This document shows, piece after piece, positions 26,670 to 49,556 of a stretch of DNA of 64,000 bases. Location of the stretch: contig JADGBX010000002.1 of the NCBI GenBank assembly GCA_015231265.1, forward strand, positions 4,174-68,173, given 5' to 3'. Made by a program: the position numbers and the translations under genes. The DNA comes from Magnetococcales bacterium (GTDB lineage: Bacteria; Pseudomonadota; Magnetococcia; Magnetococcales; JADGBX01). Under the pieces are notes generated by a model. The model did no database searches. It saw only the letters and a program-made list of their open reading frames with translations, and was not told where the DNA came from. Positions within the stretch are counted from its first letter, which is position 1, and every line of letters begins with the position of its first letter.

Positions 26670-26855
26670 TAGGGCGTGTCTTCAATGAGAACGAAATCGC
26701 GTTTGTGCCTGAAAATGCAGCAGGCAAGACGTGAGGAACGCGGTTTGGCACGGCCAAATGAGCGACGAACAACGCAGCATGGTGCGTTTTCAGGCCAAAC
26801 CCGAAGGGCTAGCGGTACGCCAACGCGGTTTTGGGCTCATTGAAGACACGCCCTA
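26670..26855 (+). repeat. 186-bp MITE-like palindromic element, copy B
   Basis: Same element in the same orientation as copy A. Its TIR carries a paired C>T / G>A change that keeps the two ends complementary. Its last 3 nt are the TAG stop of the platform gene. Confidence 0.85.
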
Positions 26856-28091
26856 GATCCCCATGCTGACCTGAGATATCAACGAGTAGATCGGCAGCAG
26901 CAGCCCGGCCAGAAGAAACACGAACACACCGCCGACAAGAAAGATCGCCAACGGCTGAATCACTTCACTCAACGTATCCACAAGATTCTGTAACCGCTCA
27001 CGATACTCATCTGCGATGTACTGAAGCTGATCAGGAAGCGTACCACTCTGCTCTCCTACTTTGATCATCTCAAGTACGAATGCCGGAAACACCTGCGCCT
27101 GTTGAAACCCCTCCGTCAAGCTCTCGCCCTGGAGAACACTTTCACGCACCTCATGGATTTTTCTTGCGTAGACCTCATTGCTCAGCGATTCGGACAGGAT
27201 CTTCAAACAGGTGATCATATCGATACCTGCGGAGATCAGGAGGTTGAAATATTCGGACATGAACGAGAGTGAAGAGGTTCGAACCAAAACGCGCGACACC
27301 GGCAGATGCATGAGAATCTGATGATACCTGTAGCGGACATCCTTGTTGCTCTTGATCAGGGCAATAATTCCCGACACGACAAGGAACAGCGTAATCAGAA
27401 TGATGATGATGTAACTCTCCATAAATTTGGAGAGATCCAGCAGGAACACCGTGATGGGTGGCATCTCCACATCAAGTTGGTGAAAAATCCCCATCATTTT
27501 CGGAACCACATAGTAGATCCAGAATCCAGCAGTACCGATGGTACTCAACAGAACCATGACCGGATAGATCAACACCTTCTTGGTATTGGACGAGATGGTT
27601 CTCAGGCGTGCCAAATGGTCGGAAGCATCTTTGAGAGTTCTATCCAGCGTCCCTGTTTCATCCCCCACCCGAACAAGGAAACAGACCTCCTGGGGAAACA
27701 CATCCGGATGACTCTCTACTGCATCAGAGAACCGGGTACCCGACTCCAGCTGAAGCCTCAGCAGCTCGACGACTCTGGACATGCCGGGGCTCTCCATCTT
27801 GTCCATGCTGACTCTCAGAGCATCAACCAGAGAGATTCCCGCACGCAGCATCGCAGACATGTTGTTCAGAAACATGATCATGTCGTCGCGTTTGACCGGG
27901 CTCTGAAAGAGACGCATGAACCAGCCGACGATCAGCTCCTGATAGGAGGATAACCGGCGTAGAGCAATGACCGTATTGCCCGCCTCTTCCAGATAGGTCT
28001 GAACATCCAGAATCTCCCGCAAGGGAAGATCCTTGAAGCCCGATTGCCGTATACCGTCCGGCTGCACATATCGATAGTAGTAGATGGCCAT
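26853..28091 (-). CDS. mshG: type II secretion / type IV pilus platform protein (GspF/PilC/MshG family)
   Basis: The ORF opens at GTG 28103. The ATG at 28091 gives MAIYYYRYVQPDG, a typical GspF start. It has two T2SSF-like repeats and three hydrophobic TM segments. Confidence 0.85.
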   Translation of the reverse strand: MAIYYYRYVQPDGIRQSGFKDLPLREILDVQTYLEEAGNTVIALRRLSSYQELIVGWFMRLFQSPVKRDDMIMFLNNMSAMLRAGISLVDALRVSMDKMESPGMSRVVELLRLQLESGTRFSDAVESHPDVFPQEVCFLVRVGDETGTLDRTLKDASDHLARLRTISSNTKKVLIYPVMVLLSTIGTAGFWIYYVVPKMMGIFHQLDVEMPPITVFLLDLSKFMESYIIIILITLFLVVSGIIALIKSNKDVRYRYHQILMHLPVSRVLVRTSSLSFMSEYFNLLISAGIDMITCLKILSESLSNEVYARKIHEVRESVLQGESLTEGFQQAQVFPAFVLEMIKVGEQSGTLPDQLQYIADEYRERLQNLVDTLSEVIQPLAIFLVGGVFVFLLAGLLLPIYSLISQVSMGI

Positions 28092-28142
28092 GTTCTTACC
28101 CACTCATGGATACGATGTTATGCATCATGCGACGGAAGCGTT

Positions 28143-29840: not shown

Positions 29841-29849
29841 TATTTTACC

Positions 29850-31463: not shown

Positions 31464-31464
31464 C

Positions 31465-32694
31465 CTATCGACCGGTTGCCGACGAGGAGGCTTGCACCAT
31501 ATCGATGAGAGAGAGAATTCTAGGATGGTCAGGATAGTCCCTCATCAACCGCTCCAACCGCCTGACTGCATCACGATGGCGCTTCATACCCATCTCTGCA
31601 ACGACCATGTTTACATTCGCCTCCAAGTCATCAGGCAACTGCTTCAAAACAGTGCTCAACAGTCCAAAGGCGCTGCTGTATTCCTCTCTGGTCAGATGCC
31701 AATAGGCACGCATTTTCGCCACAAATGGGCTTGAGGATCCCAGAAGCTGTTCCAGTTCCGACAACTGCTTGCTGACCATCTCCACGTTATTGCTGTCGAT
31801 GGCTGCAAACAGACGTTCAGTCACAACGCCGACACCCCGTGTGTCCGGATCAAGGATGCCGTTAGTGACAGTGATGGTCTCGATAGGTGGTTGACGCTGG
31901 TCAGCGGTCTGCTCTGATGAACCTGCAATCTGCGGCACCTCCGGTACAGTGTTCAAAACCGTCTCATTCTTGGGCGCGTTTGAGGGTGGAACACGACTCT
32001 CAGGTGCTGTCAGCTCAGACGACACCTTGTGCTGATCCCTCTTCACGTTTTCAACGTCTACACCCCGTTTGGATGGTTCAGATTCAGCGAACACGGGGCC
32101 GCTCTCCGATCTCTCCGGATCTCCTGTCTCAACTACCTTAACTCTCTGCAAGGGAGAGATCCTTGGTGGCAAAGGATAATCAGGGACTACTCGGACCGAC
32201 GAAGGGTGTTCCACGCTTTCAACCACAGTCACCGGCAATGAGCGATTGGGAGTAGGGGCATCAACAACCGAACTCTCTTCGGCCTGTTGGTCGGAATGGT
32301 GGTCCAGAGTATCGGGTCGGGTCTGTTGGTTGGAAAGAGAAGTGAAGACGGGTTGGAACGAGAGCGTGACCGGCCCCTTATCAATGAAGGGTTGAGGAGG
32401 CTGTCCAGGCTGGGCAACAGGATTCGCAGGGAGAGAAACACGATCGTCTCGTGCAACAAGAAAGAGTGCTCCCCCGACAAGAGCAAGCAGACCGATCACC
32501 AGCAATGCTCTCATGGTGCTCTGTTCAGCAATAAGGGTGGGCGACACCCCGTCTCTATCCGTTTCTACCCGAGTGGGTTGGGAGACTTTGATCAGCTGCT
32601 CGACCGAAATCGACCGTTTGCTCCCTTTGTGGAGCATCTCCTGGGGAGCATCGTGAGACTGAAGCTCCCGCAACGCTTCAAAGATAACACTCAA
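31465..32694 (-). CDS. bitopic TPR-repeat pilus biogenesis protein (MshN-like)
   Basis: 409 aa from a TTG start that overlaps the secretin stop (TTGA). It has one TM segment (ALLVIGLLALVGGALFLV), a Pro-rich linker and a C-terminal TPR-like region. Confidence 0.55.
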   Translation of the reverse strand: MSVIFEALRELQSHDAPQEMLHKGSKRSISVEQLIKVSQPTRVETDRDGVSPTLIAEQSTMRALLVIGLLALVGGALFLVARDDRVSLPANPVAQPGQPPQPFIDKGPVTLSFQPVFTSLSNQQTRPDTLDHHSDQQAEESSVVDAPTPNRSLPVTVVESVEHPSSVRVVPDYPLPPRISPLQRVKVVETGDPERSESGPVFAESEPSKRGVDVENVKRDQHKVSSELTAPESRVPPSNAPKNETVLNTVPEVPQIAGSSEQTADQRQPPIETITVTNGILDPDTRGVGVVTERLFAAIDSNNVEMVSKQLSELEQLLGSSSPFVAKMRAYWHLTREEYSSAFGLLSTVLKQLPDDLEANVNMVVAEMGMKRHRDAVRRLERLMRDYPDHPRILSLIDMVQASSSATGR

Positions 32695-34406: not shown

Positions 34407-34551
34407 TGAACCGATCCCTTTATCTCTGTTGTACTCGCTCTCAATGACATGGACGCACACTACCGTTCACCCGGGCAGGCATTCTACCCGTGTTTTTATA
34501 GAGCTCGATGCACTTCTCATCTGATCCCCATTGCTTATTGGTATCAGACAT

Positions 34552-36165: not shown

Positions 36166-36197
36166 CGCTTCTTTCCCACTGATTGGTAACACGGTCC

Positions 36198-36605
36198 TTA
36201 CTCCCCATCCATAGTTGGTGGATGCGGATCGTGGTCGTCAAGGGCATCTTCACGCCAAGCATCGAACCGTTCCAAATCGAGGTTATCCGGCCCTCTCCAA
36301 CCATCGCGATGGAGATAGGTCCAGACGTACTCACGCATAAACCCCTTGTCTGAAACAGCAAGCAGTTGATCAAGAGACTCTTCGGAAAGAGAGGGCTCTT
36401 CAGCCTTCATCTGCCGCCATCTCTCGACAACGCGTATTCGCTGTTCCAATGCTTTGTCGAAGTTCTCGGCGGTACCGTGCTTTGCCGTCCAGTCTAGAGC
36501 AGCGAACTCATGCTCCATCCAGACCGCAGCACGTCGCTGTCGGTCAAGAGTACACCCAACGGAGACCAGCCCGGCCAACACGACCATCAACACCATTTTC
36601 TGCAT
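36198..36605 (-). CDS. small lipoprotein (unknown function)
   Basis: The ORF runs to 36611 (GTG). The ATG at 36605 gives MQKMVLMVVLAGLVSVGC (lipobox). It lies 5 nt upstream of the next gene. Confidence 0.55.
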   Translation of the reverse strand: MQKMVLMVVLAGLVSVGCTLDRQRRAAVWMEHEFAALDWTAKHGTAENFDKALEQRIRVVERWRQMKAEEPSLSEESLDQLLAVSDKGFMREYVWTYLHRDGWRGPDNLDLERFDAWREDALDDHDPHPPTMDGE

Positions 36606-36641
36606 GAGCACTCTCTCCGTCTGAATCGACTCGGATACCTA

Positions 36642-37739
36642 TCAGGAAGTCCCATCCTGCACGCCTTTGGCAATGCAGAGCGGGGAAGGTTTCATCAGTA
36701 CCGTCCACTTGTGATCCTGTTGTTCCTCGATCGTGAAAGAGGTGCAGTAGAGTTCATTGACGGCTTTGAACTGGAGACTCCTGCGATTGATCTTGCGCAA
36801 TCTGAGGTAAAACGTATGGAACATATCATAGTCACGCCCAAGAAGCGCCTTCTTGATATAGATGAAATATCTCTGCTCAATCAGATCCATTCCCTCTTGG
36901 GCAATGGGATTATCAGGATCGATCCGCAACACTGAACGATAGCAGTGGAAAGCGGTCTTCTTGGGGTCAGACGCAACAAGTAGACGATCAGCGTCAAGGT
37001 ACTCCCGGCACATCTTGAGCTTTTCAGATACACCATCGACATCCGGCCCATTTTCAGAACCTGACACCTCTCGAGAGGGCTGATCCGTGGAGACCACCCG
37101 GACACGCATGGGCGCGACATCAGGGGGTGAGGAGTAGTGAATAGGTTCACCCTCCGTCTCCTCTTTCTGGGCAGTAGGACTCTCTTGCGTGATGTTTCGA
37201 ATCTCAGAGAGAAGACGATGCCCCCCATCTGTCATCACTAAAGTACGTACCGCCCGAGAAAACTCGGCGAGAAGAGGAATGGAAACCTCACCATCGACCG
37301 ACAGAACCTCCACCACCTTCTGCTGTTCATCGCCCGCCCATCGAACAACAAGTGAGAGGGATGAGTTGCGCCGTTCATCCGCCCGCTCCTGACAGAGAAG
37401 AGCGACAACGCGCCCGTCCAGCCAGGTTTCTACCTCGTGCCACTGAATGCCCGAGTCCCGTGTACGGTGATGAAACGTGCGCAAGGATTCAACAGCGGGA
37501 CTTAACGGTGATTTCCGGCCACTCCGCAGAAAATGCTTTTGAAGCCAATCACTTGTCTCAACATCCTCGCCCTGTAGACAGATCGCATCCAACGACTGCA
37601 CAAGGGCAATGCTCTGCTCGGACGCATGCCGACCCATCGCCATTAGCTGCGGCGAAAGAACTACAAACAGTACACACATACCGACGGTTAGAACCGCCCT
37701 GATACCGAGTCTGTCTGGCTGTTTGGTCTTGAGGCACAT
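36642..37739 (-). CDS. exported/membrane-anchored hypothetical protein with C-terminal TPR-like segment
   Basis: The ORF runs to 37796. The ATG at 37739 gives MCLKTKQPDRLGIRAVLTVGMCVLFVVLSPQLMA. It is the first gene of the minus-strand pilus operon. Confidence 0.5.
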   Translation of the reverse strand: MCLKTKQPDRLGIRAVLTVGMCVLFVVLSPQLMAMGRHASEQSIALVQSLDAICLQGEDVETSDWLQKHFLRSGRKSPLSPAVESLRTFHHRTRDSGIQWHEVETWLDGRVVALLCQERADERRNSSLSLVVRWAGDEQQKVVEVLSVDGEVSIPLLAEFSRAVRTLVMTDGGHRLLSEIRNITQESPTAQKEETEGEPIHYSSPPDVAPMRVRVVSTDQPSREVSGSENGPDVDGVSEKLKMCREYLDADRLLVASDPKKTAFHCYRSVLRIDPDNPIAQEGMDLIEQRYFIYIKKALLGRDYDMFHTFYLRLRKINRRSLQFKAVNELYCTSFTIEEQQDHKWTVLMKPSPLCIAKGVQDGTS

Positions 37740-38078
37740 TCGGATTCCGAAAGGCTCCTCACTAATCAGGCACCGGTCCGACAAACCACTCTGCAACCCA
37801 AACAGTTGTGATTGTAGTGCCGATATAGAGGTTTAGGCACGAAGAGCAGACGCGCACTTGATGTAAATAAATACTGACAGCGCATCACTACGAACGGTTG
37901 ACAAGTATAACGACATCAATACCATTGTAAACCTTATTAATAAACCTGTCGCACTACCGAACTGTTGCGCTATATTATTGAGCGGCATATTGCTGTATCA
38001 ATTACTGTTAAGTGACACACTCTCTTGGGGTAATCCCCCTCACCCTCTCGACTTTCCGTCACACGACCGGGGTAAGGA
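37740..38078. promoter_or_regulatory. divergent control region between the two pilus operons
   Basis: 339-bp AT-rich ORF-free spacer between divergent starts. It contains TTGACA (37898-37903) with a weak -10 and a TTATTAATAA palindrome. No promoter could be pinned down. Confidence 0.4.
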
Positions 38079-38786
38079 ATGCCTACGACCACACTCAGGA
38101 ATAGTGATGGATTTACGCTGATTGAATTAGCAGTTACTCTTGTCGTCATCGGTCTCATCATGGCGATCGCTTCCACTGCTCAGGATGTTGTACGCAGTGC
38201 CGAATTCAAGAAGATCTATTCTCGGCACATTCAGGCGTGGTCCGACGCCTATCAGGATCACATAGATCGGCAAGGTGTTGTTGTCGGTGATGATGCAACG
38301 TCACCGACACTCCGCGTGAATGCCCTCGGCAATCCGGCCTATACCGAGCTGTGTGACTCGAACAGCAATCAGGCCGGTGAGCTGCACGCCTATATGGATG
38401 CTGCCGGCATCGAAATGCCCTCGGGTCGTTCAACAGGGAGAGAGGACCGCTACGTCTATCAGGACACCAACGGTAATCCGCAGGAGGTCAGGATCTGTTT
38501 TCTCAATACGGCTTGGACCGATCAAGCGGGTATAGCGATTCAACGCAACGTCATGGTCATCTATGGGTTGGATCCAGCATTGGCGCGATCACTGGACTCG
38601 ACCATTGATGGTCGGCCCGATGCCAGATTCGGCCTCTTCAGACAAAACACCCTCTCCGGGTCGGCCACCACGGTAAGTTCTGAGTGGTCTGCAGATAGCC
38701 GGGACAGCTTTGGTACCAACAATCAGGCCAATCTGGATGAAGATCAGATTGCAACCGTGACCGCTCACTATCGCATGAGTCAGTAG
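38079..38786 (+). CDS. type IV pilin-like protein (candidate major pilin, paralog 1)
   Basis: 235 aa with the prepilin signature MPTTTLRNSDG|FTLIELAVTLVVIGLIMAIA (Glu5 present) and two Cys. Confidence 0.85.
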   Translation: MPTTTLRNSDGFTLIELAVTLVVIGLIMAIASTAQDVVRSAEFKKIYSRHIQAWSDAYQDHIDRQGVVVGDDATSPTLRVNALGNPAYTELCDSNSNQAGELHAYMDAAGIEMPSGRSTGREDRYVYQDTNGNPQEVRICFLNTAWTDQAGIAIQRNVMVIYGLDPALARSLDSTIDGRPDARFGLFRQNTLSGSATTVSSEWSADSRDSFGTNNQANLDEDQIATVTAHYRMSQ

Positions 38787-38896
38787 GATTACGAATCACT
38801 CGATCCGTTCAGCATTGTCACCCGTCACTATAATGGACACATTGGGTAGACGAGCGCGTGCAACGGACTGAAACATACACACCATGAGGAACGATC

Positions 38897-39814
38897 ATGT
38901 TCACATTGTCCACTCTTCGAAATAGCGTATTTAAGAGCCGAGCGGCCAGAGCGTCTCGATCGGATCATCCGAGGCAGGGCAGCGAAGGAGGATTCACCCT
39001 CTTGGAGCTGGCGATGGTGCTGGCGGTCATCGGTTTGATTCTGGGTGGCATCTCCTATGGCAAGGACCTCATGCGCAACGCAGAATACAAAAAGATCAAA
39101 CACAACTTTCTCGATCAGTGGGCACAAGCCTACAATCAATACTATGAGCGCTATGGTGTCGTGCTCGGCGACAGCCAGACTGCACCGACCATGGTGGTAA
39201 ACGCCGCATTCTCTCAGACGATTCTCGATAGTTTTCTCGATGCTGGAGTCGCTGATTACGGTAGTGGCGTCACCCTGCCCGGCATGATCTGCCAAGGGGA
39301 GTTCGAAGGGTCGGGCGAGGCGAATCGAACCACGAGCATCAACGAATCACTGCACAACTTTTTTGATGCTGCCGGCATTGAGATGCCAGCGGGTCGTTCC
39401 GAAAGCCGTGAAGATCGTTACATCTACCAGGACACTAACGGCAACCCCCAGGAGGTTCAGGTCTGCTTTCAGTGGAATCCTCCCGGCACCCGCAGCGGCT
39501 CCGGAAACGTCATGATCATCACCGGTTTGACACCCGACCTTGCGCGCATGATCGACACCATGATTGATGGTAAGCCCGATGCCCGTGAAGGTCTGTTCCG
39601 CCAGGACATCAGCACCAACAACACTGTCGGTTCCGAAGGCACCACATGGAACGCCATCAACTCCCAAACATTCGTTACCGGCTCCACTGCCGGTGTTACC
39701 GCAGATGGTGATCGCAACGACGATGTGGCGGCCGGTGTCATCAATAGCGACCAAACACGATTCGATGAGGATCAAGTGGTCGTGGTTACCGCCCACTATA
39801 AAATGAACCAGTAG
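38897..39814 (+). CDS. type IV pilin-like protein (candidate major pilin, paralog 2, long leader)
   Basis: 305 aa with a GAGGA RBS. Leader ...TLRNS-[21-aa basic insert]-GG|FTLLELAMVLAVIGLILGG. It shares AAGIEMP(S/A)GRS..REDRY(V/I)YQDTNGNPQEV and DEDQ..VTAHY(R/K)M blocks with paralog 1. Confidence 0.85.
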   Translation: MFTLSTLRNSVFKSRAARASRSDHPRQGSEGGFTLLELAMVLAVIGLILGGISYGKDLMRNAEYKKIKHNFLDQWAQAYNQYYERYGVVLGDSQTAPTMVVNAAFSQTILDSFLDAGVADYGSGVTLPGMICQGEFEGSGEANRTTSINESLHNFFDAAGIEMPAGRSESREDRYIYQDTNGNPQEVQVCFQWNPPGTRSGSGNVMIITGLTPDLARMIDTMIDGKPDAREGLFRQDISTNNTVGSEGTTWNAINSQTFVTGSTAGVTADGDRNDDVAAGVINSDQTRFDEDQVVVVTAHYKMNQ

Positions 39815-39832
39815 AACCGGTTCATTTTATAG
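39796..39832 (+). terminator. 14-bp perfect stem-loop spanning the pilin stop codon (attenuator/terminator-like)
   Basis: CTATAAAATGAACC-(9 nt, contains the TAG stop)-GGTTCATTTTATAG. There is no clean downstream T-run, so it may be a partial terminator or an mRNA-stabilising hairpin. Confidence 0.4.
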
Positions 39833-39869
39833 GCAATCGGTCCCGATCTGTCGGTTCGAGGAACAGTCC

Positions 39870-40400
39870 ATGAGGAAGCTGTTTGGAGACGTGCTCTCCA
39901 TGATATTGATTGTGGCGGCCCTGCTTGTGCCCTATCTGGCCTATCGGGCTCAATCCGCCCATGCACGCCTCTCCCTATTGGAGGCACAGCATCGCCAACT
40001 GCAACGGGATTACGCCCAGATCAATCCCCGTCAACAGCAGATGAAGATCGCCCGGCACTATCTGAACCGTACCGACAGCTTCACCCGACGCGCCCAGGCA
40101 GCCGGCATCTCACCCAAAGCATGGGATCGCCATCTGGTCACCTTCAAGGACCGTCAAGTCCCCTTTCGCGAACTGGGCTGGCTCAGTGCCAACACCAGAC
40201 CGGGGAAGAACTACTACTTCATTCCCAAGGTGCTGGATATCCGTGCTCCCAACTCAGAAGATTGGAAAGTGAAGGAGGTGACGGACCGTGGGATCAAGAA
40301 TCTTCAACACGTGCTGGTCTCACTGGAAGGGGAGTACTGGGTGCGTAATCCTGTTGCAGACATGGGTGCCCAGGTTTCGTTGCGGGGAGATTCACCATGA
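39870..40400 (+). CDS. bitopic pilus assembly protein (PilO/MshJ-like topology)
   Basis: 176 aa with an N-terminal TM segment (VLSMILIVAALLVPYLAY), then a coiled-coil-like segment. Its stop overlaps the next ATG (ATGA). Confidence 0.4.
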   Translation: MRKLFGDVLSMILIVAALLVPYLAYRAQSAHARLSLLEAQHRQLQRDYAQINPRQQQMKIARHYLNRTDSFTRRAQAAGISPKAWDRHLVTFKDRQVPFRELGWLSANTRPGKNYYFIPKVLDIRAPNSEDWKVKEVTDRGIKNLQHVLVSLEGEYWVRNPVADMGAQVSLRGDSP

Positions 40401-41710
40401 AACGGGGCAACGCCACACTCATTCTTGAGCTTGATGAACAGCTTTTCCAGCTTCGGGGACGACGGCTCACCGCCCTTGACAACACCTCTGCCGTACATCG
40501 ACACAAGTGGCTGGTGACCGATCTCAAAGGTGCAATTCCCCGGGTGATGCGGGTCAGCGCCAAACCGGAGGATGCTGCACCGGTCCTGGAGAAACAGCTT
40601 CGTGAGATCGGCGAGTTGAGCGGTCCCGGCGAAGTACTTGTCCACGACTACGTACGGCGCGACAAGCGGAGTTTGGACTGCCTGCTCACCGGTGTGACGC
40701 GCACGGTCTTCGGAGATTATCAATTCGCTGCAAACGGGGATTCGGATCACCACCTGATTTTCTCGTTCCCCTGCCTCCTTGCCAAAGCGCTGAAGAAGAT
40801 CAAACCAAAGCGTCCGGCCGTGATTATGATTCAACACGGTCGTCATGTGGATCTTCTGGTAGCAGACCACAAACACCTCTATGATGCGACACGCGTTTCC
40901 GTCAGTCAGGAAACGGATCATGAACGCTTTCCAGATCTCATCAGAACCGTACTGCAGACAGCAGAGCAGCGCAGCGAGATCGAAATACGCGAATTCCATT
41001 TTCACTACTGGTTGAGCAAAGATCCCAACGCGTTTACCTGGGTCACATCCCTGGCGGAATCGATGCAGGTGACCTGCCACATGGCCCCTTCAGGTCTGCT
41101 CAAACTGGCCAAGGATCAGTACCACTCGACACTGCCTGCGCTTCTTGAATCCCTTGATGTGGCCGATTCGGCATCGTCCAAAAAGGATCGCTTCCTTTTT
41201 CAACTCCACAGGTTGGAGCCGTGGCTGACCGTTCCCATGTTGGCGGGAGCACTCTTTCTGGGATTCAACGCCTTGGAGTGGGAACGCAAGGGAGATGATC
41301 TCGCCAGGGCCAATCAGACACTTCAAAGCCGCATCACTCGGTCGCTCTCCCAAGAGACCAAGCTGGAGCCCAATCCCGACTTCGAACCGACACTTGCTCT
41401 GACCTCTACTCTAACGCATGCCAGCAAACAGCCGATTCCGGATCTTATACTCCGGGAAGTGTATCAATCCGCTGCACCGCGGGTAGCGTTTGACCAAGTC
41501 AAAATGGAGTATGGAGAGAACGGTGTCTCGGTTCACCTGCATGGCCGCGTGGACAAACGCTCGGGACAGGATGTGGAGACCTTCAACGCCTTCATCGCCA
41601 ACATGCGCCGAAAGAACTATATCGTCTCGGATAGTACTCTGAAAGCCGACGTACATTTTCTTCTTTTCAACCTGAAACTGGATCGTCCGCTCAATGAAAG
41701 CCAAATCTAA
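40397..41710 (+). CDS. pilus assembly inner-membrane protein (MshI / PilM-PilN-fusion-like topology)
   Basis: 437 aa with a ~270-aa soluble N-domain, a single hydrophobic segment (LTVPMLAGALFLGFNAL), a coiled-coil stretch and a C-terminal domain. The call rests on position and topology, not on motifs. Confidence 0.4.
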   Translation: MKRGNATLILELDEQLFQLRGRRLTALDNTSAVHRHKWLVTDLKGAIPRVMRVSAKPEDAAPVLEKQLREIGELSGPGEVLVHDYVRRDKRSLDCLLTGVTRTVFGDYQFAANGDSDHHLIFSFPCLLAKALKKIKPKRPAVIMIQHGRHVDLLVADHKHLYDATRVSVSQETDHERFPDLIRTVLQTAEQRSEIEIREFHFHYWLSKDPNAFTWVTSLAESMQVTCHMAPSGLLKLAKDQYHSTLPALLESLDVADSASSKKDRFLFQLHRLEPWLTVPMLAGALFLGFNALEWERKGDDLARANQTLQSRITRSLSQETKLEPNPDFEPTLALTSTLTHASKQPIPDLILREVYQSAAPRVAFDQVKMEYGENGVSVHLHGRVDKRSGQDVETFNAFIANMRRKNYIVSDSTLKADVHFLLFNLKLDRPLNESQI

Positions 41711-42722
41711 AGGTGCCTTTTCACTGGGTGTGGCCCTCATCTCTCTCAGTGTATCCGGTATACTCTATTATCAATCCAGCACCATGCGACTCAGCCGAAG
41801 CGCCGTCAGACCGACGCCGATGCCGACCTTCAAGGTGGATAGAAAAGCGTTGCGCTCCATTTCTGAACTCTCCCCCGGTCTTGAGTCGCTGCGCAGTCCC
41901 GGCCAGGCACTGCGACCGGTTCCCTTCGTTCATCTGGCGACACTGTTCGGTGCCACTTCCGAGGATTTGGAAGCTGAAAAACCGTCACCGGAGAGTGTAC
42001 AAAGCGCCAAAACAACCCCGCAGCTTCTTCCCGCTTTGGCTGTTCCGGAGGTGGTCCCAAAAGTTGAACAGAAACCTCTTGATGGTGGAGCCGCCCATCC
42101 TCGCTGGAACTACCCGGTGTGGAATCAACCGCTGCCTGATGCCAAGCAGGTCGATGCAGAGTTGACCGCTGCAGTTGCGCCAAAAAGGGATGAGAACTGG
42201 AGAGAGATCGAACTCCCCGAAACAGTCGGCGACGGTCTGATGCCTGAGAACAAGAGCAAAGAGGAGATGGAAGCACCACCGTTTCCAAAACACGCTCTCT
42301 CCATGACTTTCATGAGTCCTGAGCAGCAACTGGCCGTAATCGACGGTTATCTCTATCGAGAGGGGGATACCCTGTCGAGCGGTGTGGTACTCGCTTCCAT
42401 TACCCGCAACAGCGTCACGCTTGTCCGTGGAGAGGAGCGCCGCGACGTTACCATGGAGAGTGGCACAATAGGCAAAGTGCCCGAGCACGCTTTGCGCGGC
42501 TCCATTCCAAACCAAGCACCCGGGAAAACAACACCATCAGCAATCACGAAAATTCCTACTCCATCCGTGAAGGCTGCACCATCTGGTTTACCCGCTTCTG
42601 CAAAAGTTCAAGTACCGACGGCAACCAGCTCGGGCGCGACAAACAACGCCGGCACCCCTCTTGGAGCGTTGGGCTTGAAAATCGTCCGCGACGCACTGGA
42701 AAGGTCCAACTATCCACAATAG
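41694..42722 (+). CDS. GspB/MshK-like pilus/secretin assembly protein
   Basis: 342 aa with an N-terminal TM segment and a Pro-rich linker. The C-terminal block LAVIDGYLYREGDTLSSGVVLASITRNSVTLVRGEE resembles the T2SS protein B / MshK C-domain. Confidence 0.5.
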   Translation: MKAKSKGAFSLGVALISLSVSGILYYQSSTMRLSRSAVRPTPMPTFKVDRKALRSISELSPGLESLRSPGQALRPVPFVHLATLFGATSEDLEAEKPSPESVQSAKTTPQLLPALAVPEVVPKVEQKPLDGGAAHPRWNYPVWNQPLPDAKQVDAELTAAVAPKRDENWREIELPETVGDGLMPENKSKEEMEAPPFPKHALSMTFMSPEQQLAVIDGYLYREGDTLSSGVVLASITRNSVTLVRGEERRDVTMESGTIGKVPEHALRGSIPNQAPGKTTPSAITKIPTPSVKAAPSGLPASAKVQVPTATSSGATNNAGTPLGALGLKIVRDALERSNYPQ

Positions 42723-42729
42723 TCGAGAT

Positions 42730-43581
42730 ATGGAGATGATAAGACGACATCACTCGGAAAGAGGTGTGACAGCTTCGTCTTTCGATTCAGGAACTGCCGA
42801 CCGAACCGTCCATAACAGCCATGGCGAATCGGGGGTTTCTCTCATTGAGTTGACGGTGATTCTGGCGATCATCGGCCTTGTCTCCAGCGCTGGCATCAAT
42901 GTCATGGTGGGAATCAAGGATACGGCCAATAAAGCCAGGAATGCCCAACTCATTGCTGATGCCCAGTCGGCATTGATCACTTTCTCCTCGACCAACTACC
43001 GTCTCCCCTGCCCTGCCAATCCCGATCTGATCCCAGGTAATGCAGGGTACGGACTTGAGGACTGCACACGTGATGCGGGGATGATTCCCCATGTTACACT
43101 CGTCTTGGATCAGGCCGCTCTCGACACATCCATGCAGCCCATACGCTATGTCGTCTATCGCGTTGCCGACACCACCCTGGATGGTGATGGCAACCAGAGC
43201 CTTGATGGAGATCTGGCAACTGCCGTCAACCGCGTGGACAACCTGGGAGAAGATGGACTCATCAATATCTGGGACTTCTGCCTCGCCCTTGAAAATGGCA
43301 ACACTGCTTTCGGTACCGGCGAGGCCTCCATCTCAACGCTCCCTCTCTCCGGCTCGGGAAACGGATGTCGGGAGGCGGGCAGTTTTGCCAATCAAGCCTT
43401 CGTTCTGGCCTCTTCAGGCAACAGGGATAGCAGTCGACCGGCTGACGGCAATCTGTTTGATGGCATCAACGCAGCAGGCAACACCTGTTTCTCCAGTCCG
43501 GATCAGCCGTGGGATACCTCGTACGACGATGTGATCGCAGCCAGCAGTTTCACCACTCTTCTGGGGATGCTTTGCCAATGA
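42730..43581 (+). CDS. pilin-like protein, RLPCP-family paralog 1 (core module only)
   Basis: 283 aa with a long leader ending ...HGESG|VSLIELTVILAIIGLV. Motifs: YRLPCPA, EDC, PIRYVVYRV, DFC, LASSG...LFDGINAAG, YDDVIAA. Confidence 0.8.
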   Translation: MEMIRRHHSERGVTASSFDSGTADRTVHNSHGESGVSLIELTVILAIIGLVSSAGINVMVGIKDTANKARNAQLIADAQSALITFSSTNYRLPCPANPDLIPGNAGYGLEDCTRDAGMIPHVTLVLDQAALDTSMQPIRYVVYRVADTTLDGDGNQSLDGDLATAVNRVDNLGEDGLINIWDFCLALENGNTAFGTGEASISTLPLSGSGNGCREAGSFANQAFVLASSGNRDSSRPADGNLFDGINAAGNTCFSSPDQPWDTSYDDVIAASSFTTLLGMLCQ

Positions 43582-44852
43582 AAAAGCGACTGTCGAACCG
43601 CCCTCCAAAGAGATCTCTCCACTCCAGCATGGCAGGGTTCAACTTTCTTGAACTCTCCATCGCCATTGCCATCGTCGGCATGATCACCGGTGTTGCCCTC
43701 TCCACCAGTACCAGCCGCAACGCTGTGGAGCAGATGGCCCATCGCAGTGTTGCCAAGCAGTCGATGCAGGTGATGGGGCAGGCAGAGAACATCATCCTCG
43801 GCTATGCGATGCGAACGGAACGCCTCCCCTGCCCCGATGTCAACGATGATGGACGCGAGGATTGTGCAGCCTCCAACAGTGTCGGCACCGTCCCCTATCT
43901 GGATATCGGATTGTCGCAACCCTTTCTGGACGGAAATGGCAATCCCGTTCGCTATGGTGTCTATCGTAATCCCAACGACAAGGCCGATTTGACCACAATC
44001 AGCGACCGGCTCAAACCCTGGCTCCTACCGATCACTCGCGATCCTGCGGGCCCCAACGACGCTGGAAGCATCGCCGCCCATACTGGGTACCAGAACCGGC
44101 TCGATCTCTGCCGAAGCCTCTACAATGCTATCCGGTCAACCCCCTCCAGCAGCCATGTTCATGTCAAGGACGGCTCCTTCATCCGCAACATGTCCTATAT
44201 TCTTGCCAGTGGTGGCATGATGGATGCCGATGGCGACGGTTCACATTTCGATGGCATCAACGCCAAATCCCCACTCAAGCAGTTCGAAACCCCGGACCGG
44301 CGGAAGAGTGACAACTCCGCTGGTGAAGAAGACAGTGTTATCGGTGGCTATGACGATATCGTCAAAGTGATGCCGTTTGGTGTACTGGCATACAAGCAGG
44401 GCTGCTTTGAAGCCAATATGGCCATGAAGGCTCTGGCCATGTCCACGATTGCAGCGGATGATGACTACAGAGCCTCCGTCAACTCCTACGATGCTGCCGT
44501 ACACGGTGTGGAAGTGGCCAAATATGAGCGAGATACCGCCATATTCAATACGGTAATGACCGCTCTGGATGCCGCTACGGTTATCTTCGATGGCATCCTC
44601 ACAACAGGCCAAATCATGAAGGGGGCCGCATCTGCCGCTGCCGAAGTACCCGGTCTGGTCATGGACGGAGTGAATACTGCCATCTCCATCTACGCTGCTG
44701 CCGACAGTATGCAGGGGGCGGTTGATGGTCTTGATGGAGCCCAGGAGTACCTCGACACGACTATCGCCATGGAGGAAGACTCCTGGCAGTATCTCACCGA
44801 TATCTGGGGTAAAGCGGCGCACATGGACAAGGATCAGGGGATCAAACGATGA
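43578..44852 (+). CDS. pilin-like protein, RLPCP-family paralog 2 (core + C-terminal helical module)
   Basis: The ORF track opens at 43509. The ATG at 43578 overlaps the upstream TGA (ATGA) and gives MKKRLSNRPPKRSLHSSMAG|FNFLELSIAIAIVG. Motifs: ERLPCPD, PVRYGVYRN, DADGDGSHFDGIN, YDDIVKV. Confidence 0.8.
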   Translation: MKKRLSNRPPKRSLHSSMAGFNFLELSIAIAIVGMITGVALSTSTSRNAVEQMAHRSVAKQSMQVMGQAENIILGYAMRTERLPCPDVNDDGREDCAASNSVGTVPYLDIGLSQPFLDGNGNPVRYGVYRNPNDKADLTTISDRLKPWLLPITRDPAGPNDAGSIAAHTGYQNRLDLCRSLYNAIRSTPSSSHVHVKDGSFIRNMSYILASGGMMDADGDGSHFDGINAKSPLKQFETPDRRKSDNSAGEEDSVIGGYDDIVKVMPFGVLAYKQGCFEANMAMKALAMSTIAADDDYRASVNSYDAAVHGVEVAKYERDTAIFNTVMTALDAATVIFDGILTTGQIMKGAASAAAEVPGLVMDGVNTAISIYAAADSMQGAVDGLDGAQEYLDTTIAMEEDSWQYLTDIWGKAAHMDKDQGIKR

Positions 44853-46039
44853 GAGGAGCTTCACCTCGCGGCTCCGCAGGTTTTAACCTTCTGGAGATGA
44901 GCGTCGCCCTGGTGGTGTTGGGCATCATGGTGGGAACGACACTCTCCGTCGCCCCCAAACTCCTCAAGGAGGGAGAGCAGGCGGGACACGCCACATCGAT
45001 CCCCAGCCCAGAACTCCTCGACATGGCAGAAGGGGGACTCCTGGCCTTCATCGCCGCCCATAATCGTCTCCCCTGCCCAGACAGTGTCAACCGTGATGGT
45101 GTTGAGGACTGTTCCGGTGGAGCTGTTGGGGACTACCCCTGGCGCAGTCTCGGTTTCTCTGCCGCCTTGGCCGATGCCAGCGAAACCCCTCTTCGATACG
45201 GCGTCTACCGTTACAGCCAATCCGACGCGGTTGCCGATGCTGACCTTGCCGATCCGACCGGTAAGAACAGGTATATTCCGACCATTCCCAACCATCAATC
45301 CAATCAGTTCAACCTGCTCGATTTCTGCACTGCTCTGCGCAACGCGGCCCACCGATCCGAAGATGCTTCCCTGATCCATACCCTCAACAACGGCATCATC
45401 ATCAATCCAGCCTTCATACTGGTCAGCGGCCACAGTTTCGATGCCGATGGTGATGCGGTAAACGGCTCCTTCGATGGCCGTAACGAGTCTGGTGTCAGCT
45501 TCGACCATCCCGGTCTTGAGAAGAGTGCAACTTACGACGACGTGGTCCGTACCGTCGGCCTGTTCGAACTCTCCAGCCGTCTCTCCTGCGCCTTGATGAT
45601 GACCTCGGCCAATACACTCGGCATCCTCTCCACTTCCGACGAATATCGCGTGGAAAAAGCAAAATATGACGTCAGCAACGCTGAATGGAACGTGGAGATG
45701 AACAAATGGGACATTGCTGATTCAGCGCTTTCAGCTCTGGGCAATGCCGCCGACATCTGTCTTGCAGGCGCGCAGTTGGCGTGCGATGCCCCTGCCGCTC
45801 CCTGTGGTGCCGGTGCTTCCATCACCATGGATGTCATCGGACTTGGGGGAGCAGTCTTTCAGCAGATTCTCGGATTCGCTTCCATGGCGGAGAGGATCGC
45901 TGCGCTGGTCATCATCGAGGGACATCTGGATGTCTATAAATCCCTTCAAACCCAGATGGAGGATACGGCAGCGATCAGCAAGGCGAGAGCCATCAAAGCG
46001 GATGAAAACGCCCACTTCGGGACGGAGACAACACCATGA
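44849..46039 (+). CDS. pilin-like protein, RLPCP-family paralog 3 (core + C-terminal helical module)
   Basis: 396 aa with an ATGA overlap. Leader MRGASPRGSAG|FNLLEMSVALVVLG. Motifs: NRLPCPD, PLRYGVYRY, DADGDAVNGSFDGRN, YDDVVRT. Confidence 0.8.
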   Translation: MRGASPRGSAGFNLLEMSVALVVLGIMVGTTLSVAPKLLKEGEQAGHATSIPSPELLDMAEGGLLAFIAAHNRLPCPDSVNRDGVEDCSGGAVGDYPWRSLGFSAALADASETPLRYGVYRYSQSDAVADADLADPTGKNRYIPTIPNHQSNQFNLLDFCTALRNAAHRSEDASLIHTLNNGIIINPAFILVSGHSFDADGDAVNGSFDGRNESGVSFDHPGLEKSATYDDVVRTVGLFELSSRLSCALMMTSANTLGILSTSDEYRVEKAKYDVSNAEWNVEMNKWDIADSALSALGNAADICLAGAQLACDAPAAPCGAGASITMDVIGLGGAVFQQILGFASMAERIAALVIIEGHLDVYKSLQTQMEDTAAISKARAIKADENAHFGTETTP

Positions 46040-48618
46040 ACCAGCACGCATCCATGAAGGGCTTCGGCATGCTGGGGGCGATGGGTGCCCTGTTGGCCCT
46101 GGGCGGAGCCGTTGCGATCGCCATCAACATGATGCCCGGTGAGCAGGAGCGGGAGTCGGTGGATGAGACACAGAAGATCATCCCCAGAATCAGCGATATG
46201 CTGACCGACTTCGCGGCCTCCCACAACCGTCTCCCCTGCCCTGACTTCAATGGCAATGGTGTCGAAGGAGATGCAAACGGCGACTGCACCACCTCTAAAC
46301 AGGTGGGCACGATACCGTGGCGAGCACTCCGCCTCTCGGGCCAAGTGGTGGATGGCATGGGCGTACCGATCCGCTATGCCGTCTTTCGAGACACTACCGG
46401 CGTCGATCTGACCGTCGCGAGCAACAGCTACACCCCACCTTTTCCCACCCTGAAGGATGCTGCCAGTATCTTCACCTTCAATCCACTGGCTTCAGTCGTT
46501 CACAACGATCTGGTGGGCAACTCAACACTGTCGGTTTTTGGCCAAGCTGTCGATTCACTAAAATCGGCCATTCCGGGGGGCGATCTCGTTCTACCCGGCA
46601 ACTTTGCCCAATCCTTTTCCCTGGCGGGACTTCTAAGCAAACCGGACTGTGACCCAGATATTCGCTCTCCACTCAAATGCCTGGAAGAAAACCCGGATAG
46701 TCTGGTCTCGAAGATGAACAGCGGCTCCTCCGCTGTCAATCTCTACGACTTCTGCTACAACCTGGAGCAGGCACAGGAGGTGAATTCCGGTAGTGTGCTC
46801 TCCATTACCAATTCCAAAGAAGCGGCCTTGGCCTACAAAGCCGCTTACGATGCCGAATATGACAGGATCAAGCAGCAGAACCCCACCCTCTCAACAGCCC
46901 TCATCACCAAAGCGGCCAAAGAGGCGGGTGAAGCCGCTGCACGTGCCGTGGGCAGCAGACATCCAGCTTATCTGCTCGTCAGCGGCAACAGGATAGATGC
47001 TGATCAGGATGATGTTGACGGTGCTTTTGACGGTCTGAATGAAGGGACGGATCCCCGATTCGATGATCCGTTCAGGGGCCGCAGTGCAAGCTATGATGAT
47101 GTTCTCATGGCGATGCCTTTGGATAAATTGGAGGTTAATCTCGGCTGCCGTGCGTTCAGAACTGCTGTCGATGGATTGGTTCGGCTCACCCAAGACATGA
47201 CCGGAGCCGTTGCCGGTGCTCAGAAGTCCGACATGGATGCCACCTTTGCCTTGGTTCAAGGGTACTACGGCGTTTTGACGGCAGGATTCGACCTTTTAAG
47301 CCTTGGCACCTGTTCAGGTTCCCAGGCTCAGACCGCTGGGATGTGCGCGCCCAATTTCCCTGCCGGAACTGCCGGTGCCATTGCCTGTTCAATCGCATCC
47401 GGTGTCTGCATTGCGTGTGGCGTTGTGGTAATTCCCAATTTCGTCGCAGCCACTCTCTCTGCTGTTACTTCCTATCGCAACAAAGTCGCCTCCAGTGAGA
47501 CCGTAGACAGCGCCGTTCTGCTTCTGGATGAGATGATGGATGCCTCTTGGGGTATCGAGAATTACGGTGCGCTCTACCCCTTCCCCGTCAAACCGATCAC
47601 CAACTACGGTGGATTGGTGATGGGTGAAATCGACCAGGCCACTGTGGATGCCGCTCAAGTCCAGGCGGACCAACAGATGGAGGAGATGGAAGAGCAGAGG
47701 CAAGCGCAGATGGCAGCTTCAAACGCTGAGATCCTGGCAAGTCTGGCAGAGGTCCGAGCGCAGGCAGAAACCGACAAGCAGTATCTGAACGACATGGAAA
47801 CAACCATTACGGCTGCACTCACCGCACGCGGCATGACGAAGGATACGCTGACAACGGAGCGGTTTCCTCTCCCCGATATGTTTGTCACCGATGGCGATGG
47901 CAATATGATCTTGGTTGCACCCGCCTTTTCCCTCTCTTCCGATGATCTCTCTGGTCTGAGCAGAGCGCTCGATCTTGATGAAGAGATGAGAGATGCCGCT
48001 CTCTCACCGGGACTCCGTGCCAGAATTAGTATTGAACTGGGCGATTTCAGCTCCGATCCGGAGATCACCGGCAATCCAGATCCCTCCCTTCTTGCCAGTT
48101 ACCGCTACATTCCCCAGGCTCCTCGAGGACCGTATGAAGGGGATTACTATGATGCTCTGATTCCTCCGGTGATCACCGAGGAGGTTGCAGAGAAGGCCAG
48201 GAAGAATCTGCACTATATCCGTGATGAGATCATGGATGGACAAGAGCCCCCGATGACTGACAAACAGAAAGAAGAAAAGGAAGCCACAGAGAGTGCCATG
48301 AATGATCAAGAGGCTGCGGCGGCCGATGTTGATCTCGACGATCCCAACCTCCCCGACGACGCCAAGGCGATGATGGCCGAAAACAGTGCCTCCCTTCAGG
48401 ATGCACGAACCATGGAAGCCGAAGAAAAAGAGCTGAAACGCAGTGAAACCAGACAACTACAGCAACTTGTTGCCTTTGATGACATTGTCGAGGCAAAAAC
48501 TATCAAAGAGCTTCTGACCGAGATCGAAGAGGGGGTGATTGCACAGGATGCTCTGATTGTCGAACTCGACTGCGCAAAAGGAGAGATTGAAGGCTCCCCT
48601 GACCCCTCTTGTCCATGA
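46036..48618 (+). CDS. large pilin-like protein, RLPCP-family paralog 4 (core + helical/hydrophobic module + ~370-aa acidic coiled-coil tail)
   Basis: 860 aa with an ATGA overlap. Leader MNQHASMKG|FGMLGAMGALLALGG (no Glu5). Motifs: NRLPCPD, PIRYAVFRD, DADQDDVDGAFDGLN, YDDVLMA. It has a strongly hydrophobic Cys/Gly/Ala segment at aa ~444-478. Confidence 0.8.
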   Translation: MNQHASMKGFGMLGAMGALLALGGAVAIAINMMPGEQERESVDETQKIIPRISDMLTDFAASHNRLPCPDFNGNGVEGDANGDCTTSKQVGTIPWRALRLSGQVVDGMGVPIRYAVFRDTTGVDLTVASNSYTPPFPTLKDAASIFTFNPLASVVHNDLVGNSTLSVFGQAVDSLKSAIPGGDLVLPGNFAQSFSLAGLLSKPDCDPDIRSPLKCLEENPDSLVSKMNSGSSAVNLYDFCYNLEQAQEVNSGSVLSITNSKEAALAYKAAYDAEYDRIKQQNPTLSTALITKAAKEAGEAAARAVGSRHPAYLLVSGNRIDADQDDVDGAFDGLNEGTDPRFDDPFRGRSASYDDVLMAMPLDKLEVNLGCRAFRTAVDGLVRLTQDMTGAVAGAQKSDMDATFALVQGYYGVLTAGFDLLSLGTCSGSQAQTAGMCAPNFPAGTAGAIACSIASGVCIACGVVVIPNFVAATLSAVTSYRNKVASSETVDSAVLLLDEMMDASWGIENYGALYPFPVKPITNYGGLVMGEIDQATVDAAQVQADQQMEEMEEQRQAQMAASNAEILASLAEVRAQAETDKQYLNDMETTITAALTARGMTKDTLTTERFPLPDMFVTDGDGNMILVAPAFSLSSDDLSGLSRALDLDEEMRDAALSPGLRARISIELGDFSSDPEITGNPDPSLLASYRYIPQAPRGPYEGDYYDALIPPVITEEVAEKARKNLHYIRDEIMDGQEPPMTDKQKEEKEATESAMNDQEAAAADVDLDDPNLPDDAKAMMAENSASLQDARTMEAEEKELKRSETRQLQQLVAFDDIVEAKTIKELLTEIEEGVIAQDALIVELDCAKGEIEGSPDPSCP

Positions 48619-48746: not shown

Positions 48747-49556
48747 TCACTCATCACGTCTGATAAGTCGCTCTTGGATCCGACCGATAAACTCAAAGCG
48801 AACATCATCCATTGCTTTGCCAAATGGATCCTCAATCATCTCCTGTATGGTAACCAGAACCACCACCATAAAGGTGAGCAAGAATGCTGTAATGACTCCA
48901 AACCACTCCATATCAGCGAACTCAGGCGACATGATGATCACCGTGACTAACAGCGCATAGTAAACAAAGCGTCGAAGTGTTACAGGAGTTGTGTGCTCCT
49001 TAATCGATATAAGACGCTCCATGGACATTCGCATCCGTTGGTGCCACTGCATGACGCATGCTAACTCCGGATCTTTGAGACCATGCTGTTTCAATGTGAA
49101 GATAGTTTGAAGCTGGTTCTGAAAGAAGCGATCGGTTATGAGAAGAGTCTCCAGCTTAATGGTCGATTTCTGTTCACTCAGAACACTCTGAAGCATCGGA
49201 AAGAAAGTGCGCAGATCGTCCATAACCACCGGCAGAATCCGGTCAGGGAGAATGCGCTGGTAGACATCAGCCAAACTCATAACATTTGATTTGAGTTCGG
49301 AAATCTCATCAAAAGCTTCGAATCGACGCCGGTTGGCTGTTCCAATGGTAATGGCGAAGGTAAAGAAGATCCCTCCGAATGCGACATTACCGGCAATACC
49401 CATCTCAAAAACAAAATCGTAGGCAAGGCAGCACCATGTCGTAAAGGCTGAAATAGTCGGAATATAGAGAAATTTTGAATTCAAAAGGAATTTCATGAAG
49501 ATGCCACAGAGCCGCTTAATTCCAAGTGACTCCTCATGAGTCCCCTGTCGTGTCAA
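48747..49556 (-). CDS. bestrophin-like (UPF0187/YneE family) membrane channel protein
   Basis: 269 aa from a TTG preceded by GAAGG. It has hydrophobic helices plus a C-proximal IEDPFGKAMDDVRFEFI motif resembling the bestrophin-family EEPFG...D signature. Confidence 0.55.
   Translation of the reverse strand: MTRQGTHEESLGIKRLCGIFMKFLLNSKFLYIPTISAFTTWCCLAYDFVFEMGIAGNVAFGGIFFTFAITIGTANRRRFEAFDEISELKSNVMSLADVYQRILPDRILPVVMDDLRTFFPMLQSVLSEQKSTIKLETLLITDRFFQNQLQTIFTLKQHGLKDPELACVMQWHQRMRMSMERLISIKEHTTPVTLRRFVYYALLVTVIIMSPEFADMEWFGVITAFLLTFMVVVLVTIQEMIEDPFGKAMDDVRFEFIGRIQERLIRRDE

Follow-up and report, generated by a model that had tools for sequence, protein, structure and literature searches.

Among type IV filaments, systems of the mannose-sensitive haemagglutinin (MSH) kind are defined by mshA together with mshE, mshG, mshL and mshM, and as a rule they occupy a single locus that holds neither a prepilin peptidase nor the retraction ATPase PilT (Denise et al., 2019; PMC6668835). 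The MSHA pili of Vibrio cholerae, Aeromonas (Bfp) and Legionella (mshI to mshQ) are the described systems closest to the locus that we report here, which lies at positions 26853-48618 of a 64,000-nucleotide stretch of DNA from a Magnetococcales bacterium (the window; GenBank assembly GCA_015231265.1, contig JADGBX010000002.1, positions 4,174-68,173). In common with the MSHA systems, this locus encodes an MshL-type lipoprotein secretin, an AAA_22 protein of the MshM kind, an ATPase with an MshEN domain, an MshG-like platform, a bitopic tetratricopeptide repeat (TPR) protein with the same N-terminal motif as MshN, and a small-domain protein of the MshK type, all in one chromosomal locus without a prepilin peptidase or PilT. 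We conclude that it probably encodes a complete MSH-like type IV pilus machine belonging to a conserved, unstudied clade, and that it is an uncharacterised variant of the MSH kind, not a member of the described MSHA subtype. The gene content, the conservation and the gene order are firm; in principle the locus is ordinary, with one unexplored component family, the pilin-like RLPCP proteins. A literature search found no paper on this type of locus and nothing relevant on pili of Magnetococcus, and the accessible part of the supplementary tables of Denise et al. (2019; PMC6668835) holds no entry for Magnetococcus or strain MC-1.

All 17 open reading frames (ORFs) of the initial annotation were recovered at their positions and intact, in two back-to-back groups on the minus and plus strands (Table 1). 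Domain searches agreed with the content that had been given for the minus-strand group (three proteins of no family, the secretin, the TPR protein, an ExeA-like ATPase, the MshEN ATPase and the platform) and bore out that of the plus-strand group (two paralogous pilins, three bitopic proteins and four RLPCP pilin-like proteins). One detail of the latter was revised: a 447-amino-acid (aa) ORF most likely starts at 43578, where an ATG overlaps the upstream stop codon, giving a translation of 424 aa. At five plus-strand junctions, one of them involving this revised start, the stop codon of one gene overlaps the start codon of the next, which fits a single tightly coupled operon. With respect to the published MSH definition, the window holds counterparts of mshL, mshM and mshG as well as two prepilin genes of no assigned subtype, and, among its scanned ORFs, neither pilD nor pilT; the assignment of its ATPase to MshE is less clear-cut.

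Core machinery and related loci

The secretin scored 277.5 bits against TIGR02519 (cut-off 250.2), which was the only secretin model that it passed, the scores for GspD (147; cut-off 351), PilQ (129.5; cut-off 284) and HofQ being far below their cut-offs. Its BLASTP scores were 125 bits for Aeromonas MshL, 73 for HofQ and 69 for GspD. For the platform, every NCBIfam equivalog stayed below cut-off (GspF 240; cut-off 424), and BLASTP gave 139 bits for Aeromonas MshG and 118 for Escherichia coli GspF. The secretin and platform scores support the reading of the initial annotation that this is a type IV filament locus with the MSHA pilus as its nearest described relative.

The extension ATPase passed NF053729, a model of the MshE-related cyclic di-GMP (c-di-GMP) motif (45 bits; cut-off 38), and scored below the equivalog cut-offs of GspE (413.7; cut-off 630) and PilB (389.9; cut-off 676). 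Ranking by Protein Data Bank (PDB) matches was uninformative, with Thermus PilF followed by GspE and then PilB. In a neighbour-joining tree with thin sampling (464 columns, nine clade members and nine references, 60 bootstraps), the clade of the window ATPase was recovered in 60 of 60 bootstraps, and its identity to all references (MshE, GspE, HofB and PilF) was 31-36%. A phylogeny against MshE, PilB and GspE references had been proposed with the initial annotation as a check; it placed the ATPase in a clade of its own. The ATPase is a distinct lineage, whose branching point is not placed by this rough tree. Throughout the clade the first MshEN motif (residues 5-30) reads (K/R)KP(L/I)G and the second is conventional. 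The MshEN domain likely binds c-di-GMP, as judged from sequence, although with KPLG in place of RLG in the first motif such binding is not assured.

Several of these scores bear on the alternative that the locus encodes a type II secretion system (T2SS), whose short periplasmic pseudopilus would push folded proteins through a secretin assembled by a GspA/GspB pair. GspE is the top model for the ATPase (at the 413.7 bits given above), which shares 40% identity with E. coli GspE across 427 residues; the locus encodes a GspA-like protein of full length as well as a domain of the GspB type; no retraction ATPase was found among the scanned ORFs of the window; and relatives of the RLPCP proteins carry the database label 'type II secretion system protein'. 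We nevertheless consider a T2SS improbable, because the GspD, GspE and GspF equivalogs all remain far below cut-off and the secretin passes the MshL model instead. Among the locus proteins there was no family match to T2SSC, T2SSL or T2SSM (GspC, GspL, GspM), nor to GspI, GspJ or GspK, and the GspG and GspH models matched the N-terminal helix only. The candidate major pilins, at 235 and 305 aa, are also far larger than the 145-aa GspG of E. coli, and the absence of PilT holds for MSH loci too (PMC6668835). In a Pfam scan of the window ORFs (all except three of 130-188 aa near the window start) neither a prepilin peptidase nor PilT was found, as the initial annotation had noted; their absence is the published rule for MSH loci (PMC6668835).

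The best database relatives of the ATPase, at 85% and 81% identity, belong to Magnetococcales metagenome-assembled genomes (MAGs); identity is 54-55% in Magnetococcus marinus MC-1 and Magnetofaba australis, and 51-59% in Desulfobacterium-like, deltaproteobacterial and gammaproteobacterial MAGs. A contig scan with the ATPase returned mostly unrelated loci of the GspE/PilB type, with PEAM01000010.1 as the sole close relative (locus L005; Magnetococcales MAG ER1bin7; ATPase 81%). We compared gene order in nine loci, namely the window and eight related loci that include those of the cultured MC-1 and Magnetofaba australis and of Desulfobacterium-like and gammaproteobacterial MAGs. The core order, from secretin to TPR protein, AAA_22/PG-binding protein, MshEN ATPase and platform (L-N-M-E-G), was the same in all nine, with one small additional gene ahead of the AAA protein in two of the eight relatives. 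In Aeromonas caviae and Legionella adelaidensis, whose MSHA-type loci served as references, the order is L-M-N-E, so that the swap of the TPR and ExeA-like genes, pointed out in the initial annotation, is real with respect to these references, but it is a fixed trait of the clade and not a local oddity. The gammaproteobacterial MSHA architecture, L-M-N-E-G with a short soluble MshM, was found neither in the window nor in any of its eight relatives. The A. caviae record NZ_AP026896.1 (L009, L010) was the source of both the reference MSHA-type locus and ExeA/ExeB; this 4.94-Mb record is filed as 'plasmid pKAM479_3', is evidently a chromosome and carries 18 annotated features only. In the L. adelaidensis record (L011), the second reference, the secretin is named mshL by the Prokaryotic Genome Annotation Pipeline (PGAP).

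Outside the core, gene order varied. In L003 (a 4.4-Mb genome) and L060 (a gammaproteobacterial MAG) the whole set lies on one strand in what is the consensus layout: three pilin genes come first, then three for assembly proteins, the core of five, two small genes and finally four RLPCP genes; the RLPCP genes also follow the platform gene in the relative with the 85% identical ATPase. In ER1bin7 all 17 genes of the window are collinear on one strand, and the RLPCP genes lead directly into the three no-family genes and then the secretin. The divergent layout of the window corresponds to that of ER1bin7 with the 38079-48618 block inverted and is a local rearrangement; the divergent operons described for the window are thus present here without being a defining trait. 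The synteny comparison, also proposed with the initial annotation, showed that the order of modules is fluid and that of the core is fixed. Regulatory genes near the locus vary among relatives: a hybrid histidine kinase and an AraC-type response regulator lie upstream in L005 (1-2873), a kinase and a sigma-54 activator upstream in L061 (1-2087), and a PilZ protein downstream in L060 (19947-20237). No such regulator adjoins the locus in the window.

This variation was also considered in the light of a recent chimera, in which recombination of an MSHA locus with a T2SS locus would account for the mixed hallmarks and the divergent operons. That parts resemble both systems and that module order differs among relatives would agree with it, as would a hint of horizontal transfer in the spread of the nearest relatives, which are found in MAGs of Magnetococcales, of Desulfobacterium-like bacteria and of gammaproteobacteria. 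Synteny and composition led us to reject a chimera or horizontal patchwork, and we regard it as extremely unlikely: the same gene set occurs as one unit in distant genomes with the core order invariant in nine of nine, both halves are found together and collinear in L003, L005 and L060, G+C content is even across the locus (0.50-0.57) and similar to that of the flanks, and the supposed T2SS parts have direct counterparts in the reference MSHA-type loci.

The state of the reading frames bears on another alternative, that the locus is a decaying or silent remnant from which no filament is made. No peptidase or retraction ATPase lies nearby, and the annotated 'cryptic' gsp locus of E. coli K-12 offers a precedent, yet we judge this very unlikely, given that all 17 frames are intact and full length in comparison with orthologues at 33-81% identity and that the coupled start and stop codons have been retained. 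Moreover, the spacer between the divergent groups (37797-38078) contains five sigma-70-like sites against 1.4 expected from shuffles, as consensus matches that are predicted only.

Table 1. Features of the MSH-like locus, in order of position in the window
Feature	Position	Strand	Characteristics
Inner-membrane platform (MshG/GspF/PilC family), 416 aa	26853-28103	-	Two T2SSF domains, E 1.2e-49
Extension ATPase with N-terminal MshEN, 565 aa	28143-29840	-	T2SSE, E 9.5e-107; MshEN, E 7.9e-10
GspA/ExeA/MshM-like AAA+ protein, 537 aa	29850-31463	-	AAA_22, E 4e-22; membrane segment 313-331
MshN-type bitopic TPR protein, 409 aa	31465-32694	-	C-terminal TPR_19, E 8.8e-8; membrane segment 63-81
MshL-type secretin lipoprotein, 589 aa	32691-34460	-	TIGR02519 (pilus_MshL); lipobox LSGC
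Exported protein, no Pfam/NCBIfam family, 546 aa	34552-36192	-	Seven cysteine-bracketed helical repeats
Small exported lipoprotein-like protein, no family, 137 aa	36198-36611	-	Hydrophobic N-terminus ending VSVGC
Membrane-anchored protein, no family, 384 aa (TTG start) or 365 aa (ATG at 37739)	36642-37796	-	Membrane segment 30-48
AT-rich intergenic region, 282 bp	37797-38078	none	Promoter-like sites, plus and minus strand
Prepilin 1 (candidate major pilin), 235 aa	38079-38786	+	N_methyl, E 6e-7; G|FTLIE; 11-residue leader
Prepilin 2 (paralogue of prepilin 1), 305 aa	38897-39814	+	TIGR02532, 20.2 bits (cut-off 16.3)
Small bitopic assembly protein, no family, 176 aa	39870-40400	+	N-terminal membrane segment
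Putative PilM-plus-PilN-like assembly protein (MshI/GspL type), 437 aa	40397-41710	+	AlphaFold model and Foldseek
MshK/GspB-type bitopic protein, 342 aa	41694-42722	+	T2SSB, 24.3 bits (cut-off 28.4); Y4YQ_C
RLPCP protein, globular domain only, 283 aa	42730-43581	+	G|VSLIE; 40% identical to a 247-aa protein of L003
RLPCP protein with Ala-rich helical tail, 424 aa	43578-44852	+	G|FNFLE; alignment to RLPCP family
RLPCP protein, 396 aa	44849-46039	+	Pilin helix, small alpha/beta domain and long helical hairpin (AlphaFold)
Largest RLPCP protein, without Glu5, 860 aa	46036-48618	+	G|FGMLG; hydrophobic segment 443-467

Putative secretin-assembly and inner-membrane proteins

The initial annotation had described the locus as mixing MSHA and T2SS hallmarks. 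This impression of a mixture was not supported, for MSH systems have GspA/GspB-type parts of their own in MshM, MshN and MshK; the parts that look like T2SS are such accessory proteins, present in a fuller form. The 537-aa ExeA-like ATPase is a long form of MshM, with a cytoplasmic ATPase, a single membrane segment and a periplasmic region at whose end PG_binding_1 matches below its cut-off. The T2SS-style peptidoglycan-binding tail that had been claimed for it is probably present, given the membrane segment and the PG_binding_1 domain that Pfam records for orthologues of the protein. By BLASTP it scored 151 bits against Aeromonas ExeA (33% identity over 286 residues) and 139 bits against MshM (34% over 261). 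Matches to GspA and GspB of E. coli K-12 were poor (E 0.001 and 12), and Aeromonas ExeA and ExeB were used as references instead.

The TPR protein is an MshN equivalent of the same plan. Its N-terminus, MSVIFEALREL, contains a motif common to MshN of Aeromonas and Legionella and to ExeB, and this cytoplasmic motif, MS[VIL][IL][FYNL]xAL, is shared by the genes at 31465-32694 in the window, 10763-11899 in L009, 7939-8994 in L011 and 5635-6318 in L010; GspB of E. coli K-12 is without it. The shared motif suggests that MshN and GspB may dock alike on their AAA partner, MshM or GspA. The C-terminal domain of the 342-aa protein matched Aeromonas ExeB (E 1e-4) and MshK (E 1e-3) by BLASTP, and Aeromonas MshK itself matches T2SSB, T2SSC and Y4YQ_C.

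Compared with the ExeA/ExeB pair of the Aeromonas T2SS, the 537-aa protein has the ExeA plan in its AAA_22 domain and membrane segment and probably in a PG_binding_1 end, the 342-aa protein carries the ExeB C-terminal domain and the TPR protein an ExeB-like N-terminal motif. In contrast to Aeromonas, the features of ExeB are split here over two proteins, the pair is part of a pilus locus and does not adjoin a T2SS, and a GspA_C39-like domain, which is evident in Aeromonas ExeA (E 1.9e-14), was not detected in the 537-aa protein. Compared with MSHA, the gene order is L-N-M-E-G where MSHA has L-M-N-E-G, and the M protein has a membrane segment and a putative peptidoglycan-binding tail, whereas MshM consists of the AAA part only (295 aa in Aeromonas, 303 aa in Legionella). 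Aeromonas has a separate MshI1 and a PilN-type MshI2, in place of which a single 437-aa protein follows a small bitopic one here; the ATPase is only 33% identical to MshE and did not cluster with it in the small tree; and an RLPCP cassette replaces the minor pilins, the pilins themselves being much larger.

For the 437-aa protein, sequence searches (a profile against PDB chains, and hhalign against E. coli GspL and HofM) gave no match. An AlphaFold model was built from an alignment of only three sequences, the word-indexed search having yielded three relatives, and had a mean pLDDT (predicted local distance difference test score) of 54, with residues 50-230 at 55-86 by 10-residue block. These residues form two beta-beta-beta-alpha-beta-alpha units, and the protein ends in an alpha-beta-beta-alpha-beta unit that comes after a helical region, part of which is weakly hydrophobic. 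Of the 11 best Foldseek matches in the PDB, ten were chains of PilM (Myxococcus, Pseudomonas and Thermus; E 1.3e-5 to 3.4e-4) and one was an actin-like protein of unknown function; FtsA came next. With moderate confidence, we read the model as a fusion of the kind seen in MshI or GspL, between a cytoplasmic domain resembling PilM and a membrane part resembling PilN. The lack of a clear PilM signature in the initial annotation is probably an artefact of sequence divergence, as Foldseek, with this low-confidence model, ranks PilM first.

The gene for the 176-aa protein adjoins that of the 437-aa protein in MC-1, L003 and L004, and genes of the same size take its place in L005, L060 and L061. From its size, topology and conserved position, we infer that it fills the role of PilO, GspM or MshJ. 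As regards a type IVa pilus, PilQ and PilB were below cut-off, no PilT was present in the scanned ORFs, and the PilM-like fold appears only in the model and in fused form.

Prepilins and the RLPCP family

The two prepilins are 54% (prepilin 1) and 56% (prepilin 2) identical to pilins of L003. In prepilin 2 the motif G|FTLLE stands at residue 32, so that the leader has about 32 residues, a length more usual among type IVb pilins. The orthologue in L005, of 303 aa, has retained this long leader.

The claim that the pilin complement differs from that of MSHA was confirmed, with the RLPCP cassette taking the place of the minor pilins. The RLPCP paralogues and their relatives share a prepilin signal, the motifs RLPCP(D), RYGVYR, N-LDFC, FDG-N and YDD, and four conserved cysteines, and no Pfam or NCBIfam model matched them beyond the N-terminal helix. 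With a profile built from the four domains of the window, 6,903 representative proteins were found at E <= 1e-3, of which 1,547 reached E <= 1e-10; their lengths group around 250 aa, around 400 aa and at 650-880 aa, and a small number exceed 1,000 aa. The few relatives that have a name bear only generic labels such as the T2SS one cited above. The RLPCP proteins are a large unnamed family.

Among the related loci, four RLPCP domains were counted in L003, four in L005 and three in L006, which ends at a contig edge; the 860-aa protein is 54% identical to an 845-aa protein of L002. The profile search did not find the domain in the MC-1 or Aeromonas loci; in the latter, both the profile and BLASTP matched no more than the common N-terminal pilin helix. 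In L004 the single RLPCP domain forms the N-terminal part of a LamG-domain protein of 1564 aa, an arrangement reminiscent of MshQ and other large tip adhesins (PMC13533445).

The AlphaFold model of the 396-aa protein, with an alignment depth limited to the 11 relatives from a word-indexed search, had a mean pLDDT of 75 and showed antiparallel helices at residues 247-313 and 322-386, about 65 residues per arm. By alignment this helical hairpin extends to at least one further RLPCP protein. Foldseek returned no PDB fold match below E 1e-3; its hits, mostly long coiled coils of a generic kind (colicin E3, axonemal proteins, AhlB, SmhB and MakA), were all above this value, and no homology was drawn from them. 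The modelled hairpin is Ala-rich, and we know of nothing like it in described minor pilins.

The glutamate at position 5 (Glu5) is absent from the 860-aa protein and its two closest orthologues, and in L003 another member is without it. In the tip complexes of T2SS and type IV pili, one subunit without Glu5 caps the filament. The row of four pilin-like genes, one of which lacks Glu5, resembles the minor-pilin sets GspH-I-J-K, PilV-W-X and MshD-O-P with MshQ; unlike these, the four RLPCP proteins are mutual paralogues and not four distinct families, and they have an invariant RLPCP and conserved cysteines. Since one of the four lacks Glu5, we propose that together they may form a priming and tip complex. 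It is also conceivable, though in our estimate unlikely, that the RLPCP proteins make a new kind of pilus tip, in which three of them would each supply an Ala/Gly-rich hairpin (~65 residues per arm) and these would bundle into a rigid spike that projects from the filament end and is capped by the 860-aa subunit. If so, the spike could make contact with a surface or with another cell's membrane, or insert into either, and it would be a widespread, undescribed tip module of MSH-like pili.

Remaining genes, surroundings and proposed working

Three genes upstream of the secretin encode proteins of no family. The 14 cysteines of the 546-aa protein form seven pairs, the two members of a pair 44-47 residues apart and successive units separated by 18-32 residues, and it has the look of a periplasmic protein of helical repeats stapled by disulfides; among the retrieved loci, its orthologues occur only in the closest Magnetococcales ones. 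The orthologue of the 137-aa protein in L002 is 37% identical. For the protein at 36642-37796, the only match was one of 15.8 bits to the Amuc_1098 pilus outer-membrane family, and its orthologue in L002 is 33% identical.

Directly upstream of the pilus locus (1-26600) is an island for sugar modification, about 26 kb long. Its products include four radical SAM proteins that bind B12, three large proteins with Glyco_trans_1_2, a sulfotransferase, several methyltransferases, two proteins resembling formyltransferases and a cytidylyltransferase of the CMP-sugar type. The island could glycosylate flagellin or the unusually large pilins. Housekeeping genes lie downstream of the locus. Just past the end of the plus-strand group, an ORF for 269 aa without a Pfam match (48747-49556, minus strand) lies in a stretch of low G+C content (0.48, against ~0.56 on either side).

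A number of observations weigh against reading the locus as an MSH-like pilus machine. No role is assigned to the three genes that precede the secretin gene. In the few-reference neighbour-joining tree, the ATPase clade joined the MshE of Aeromonas and Legionella in 0 of 60 bootstraps and GspE in 2 of 60, and the ATPase is as near to GspE as to MshE (35% and 33% identity, respectively); its first MshEN motif is KPLG, against RLG in Aeromonas MshE. The PG_binding_1 match of the 537-aa protein, at 19.9 bits, is below the cut-off of 23. The PilM assignment of the 437-aa protein rests on a model with a mean pLDDT of 54 and TM-scores of 0.18-0.33, without support from sequence methods.

Taking the locus as an MSH-like pilus machine, we infer the function of every step as follows. 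A prepilin peptidase whose gene lies elsewhere would process the two prepilins and four RLPCP proteins. Probably under the control of c-di-GMP, the MshEN ATPase would drive the MshG-like platform to polymerise the pilins, and the PilM/PilN-like 437-aa protein, the bitopic 176-aa protein and the MshK/GspB-like 342-aa protein would connect this inner-membrane motor to the secretin. The GspA-like AAA+ protein, reaching the peptidoglycan, and its MshN-like TPR partner may aid assembly of the secretin, as ExeA and ExeB do in Aeromonas, and the filament would leave the cell via the MshL-type lipoprotein secretin. The four RLPCP proteins would prime assembly and sit at the tip, the 860-aa protein, without Glu5, being outermost.

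The findings are unsurprising in kind. They describe a second MSH architecture, with a GspA-like M protein predicted to reach the cell wall, a putative fused protein of the PilM/PilN type and an ATPase lineage of its own, at a time when the classification of type IV filaments rests on few studied systems and that of MSH essentially on Vibrio. The clade ties MshM, MshN and MshK to GspA and GspB more plainly than Vibrio does, which bears on how secretins cross the peptidoglycan. The RLPCP family marks a concrete and sizeable gap in pilin annotation. For the magnetotactic cocci, a pilus of the c-di-GMP type beside a glycosylation island is a candidate for surface attachment.

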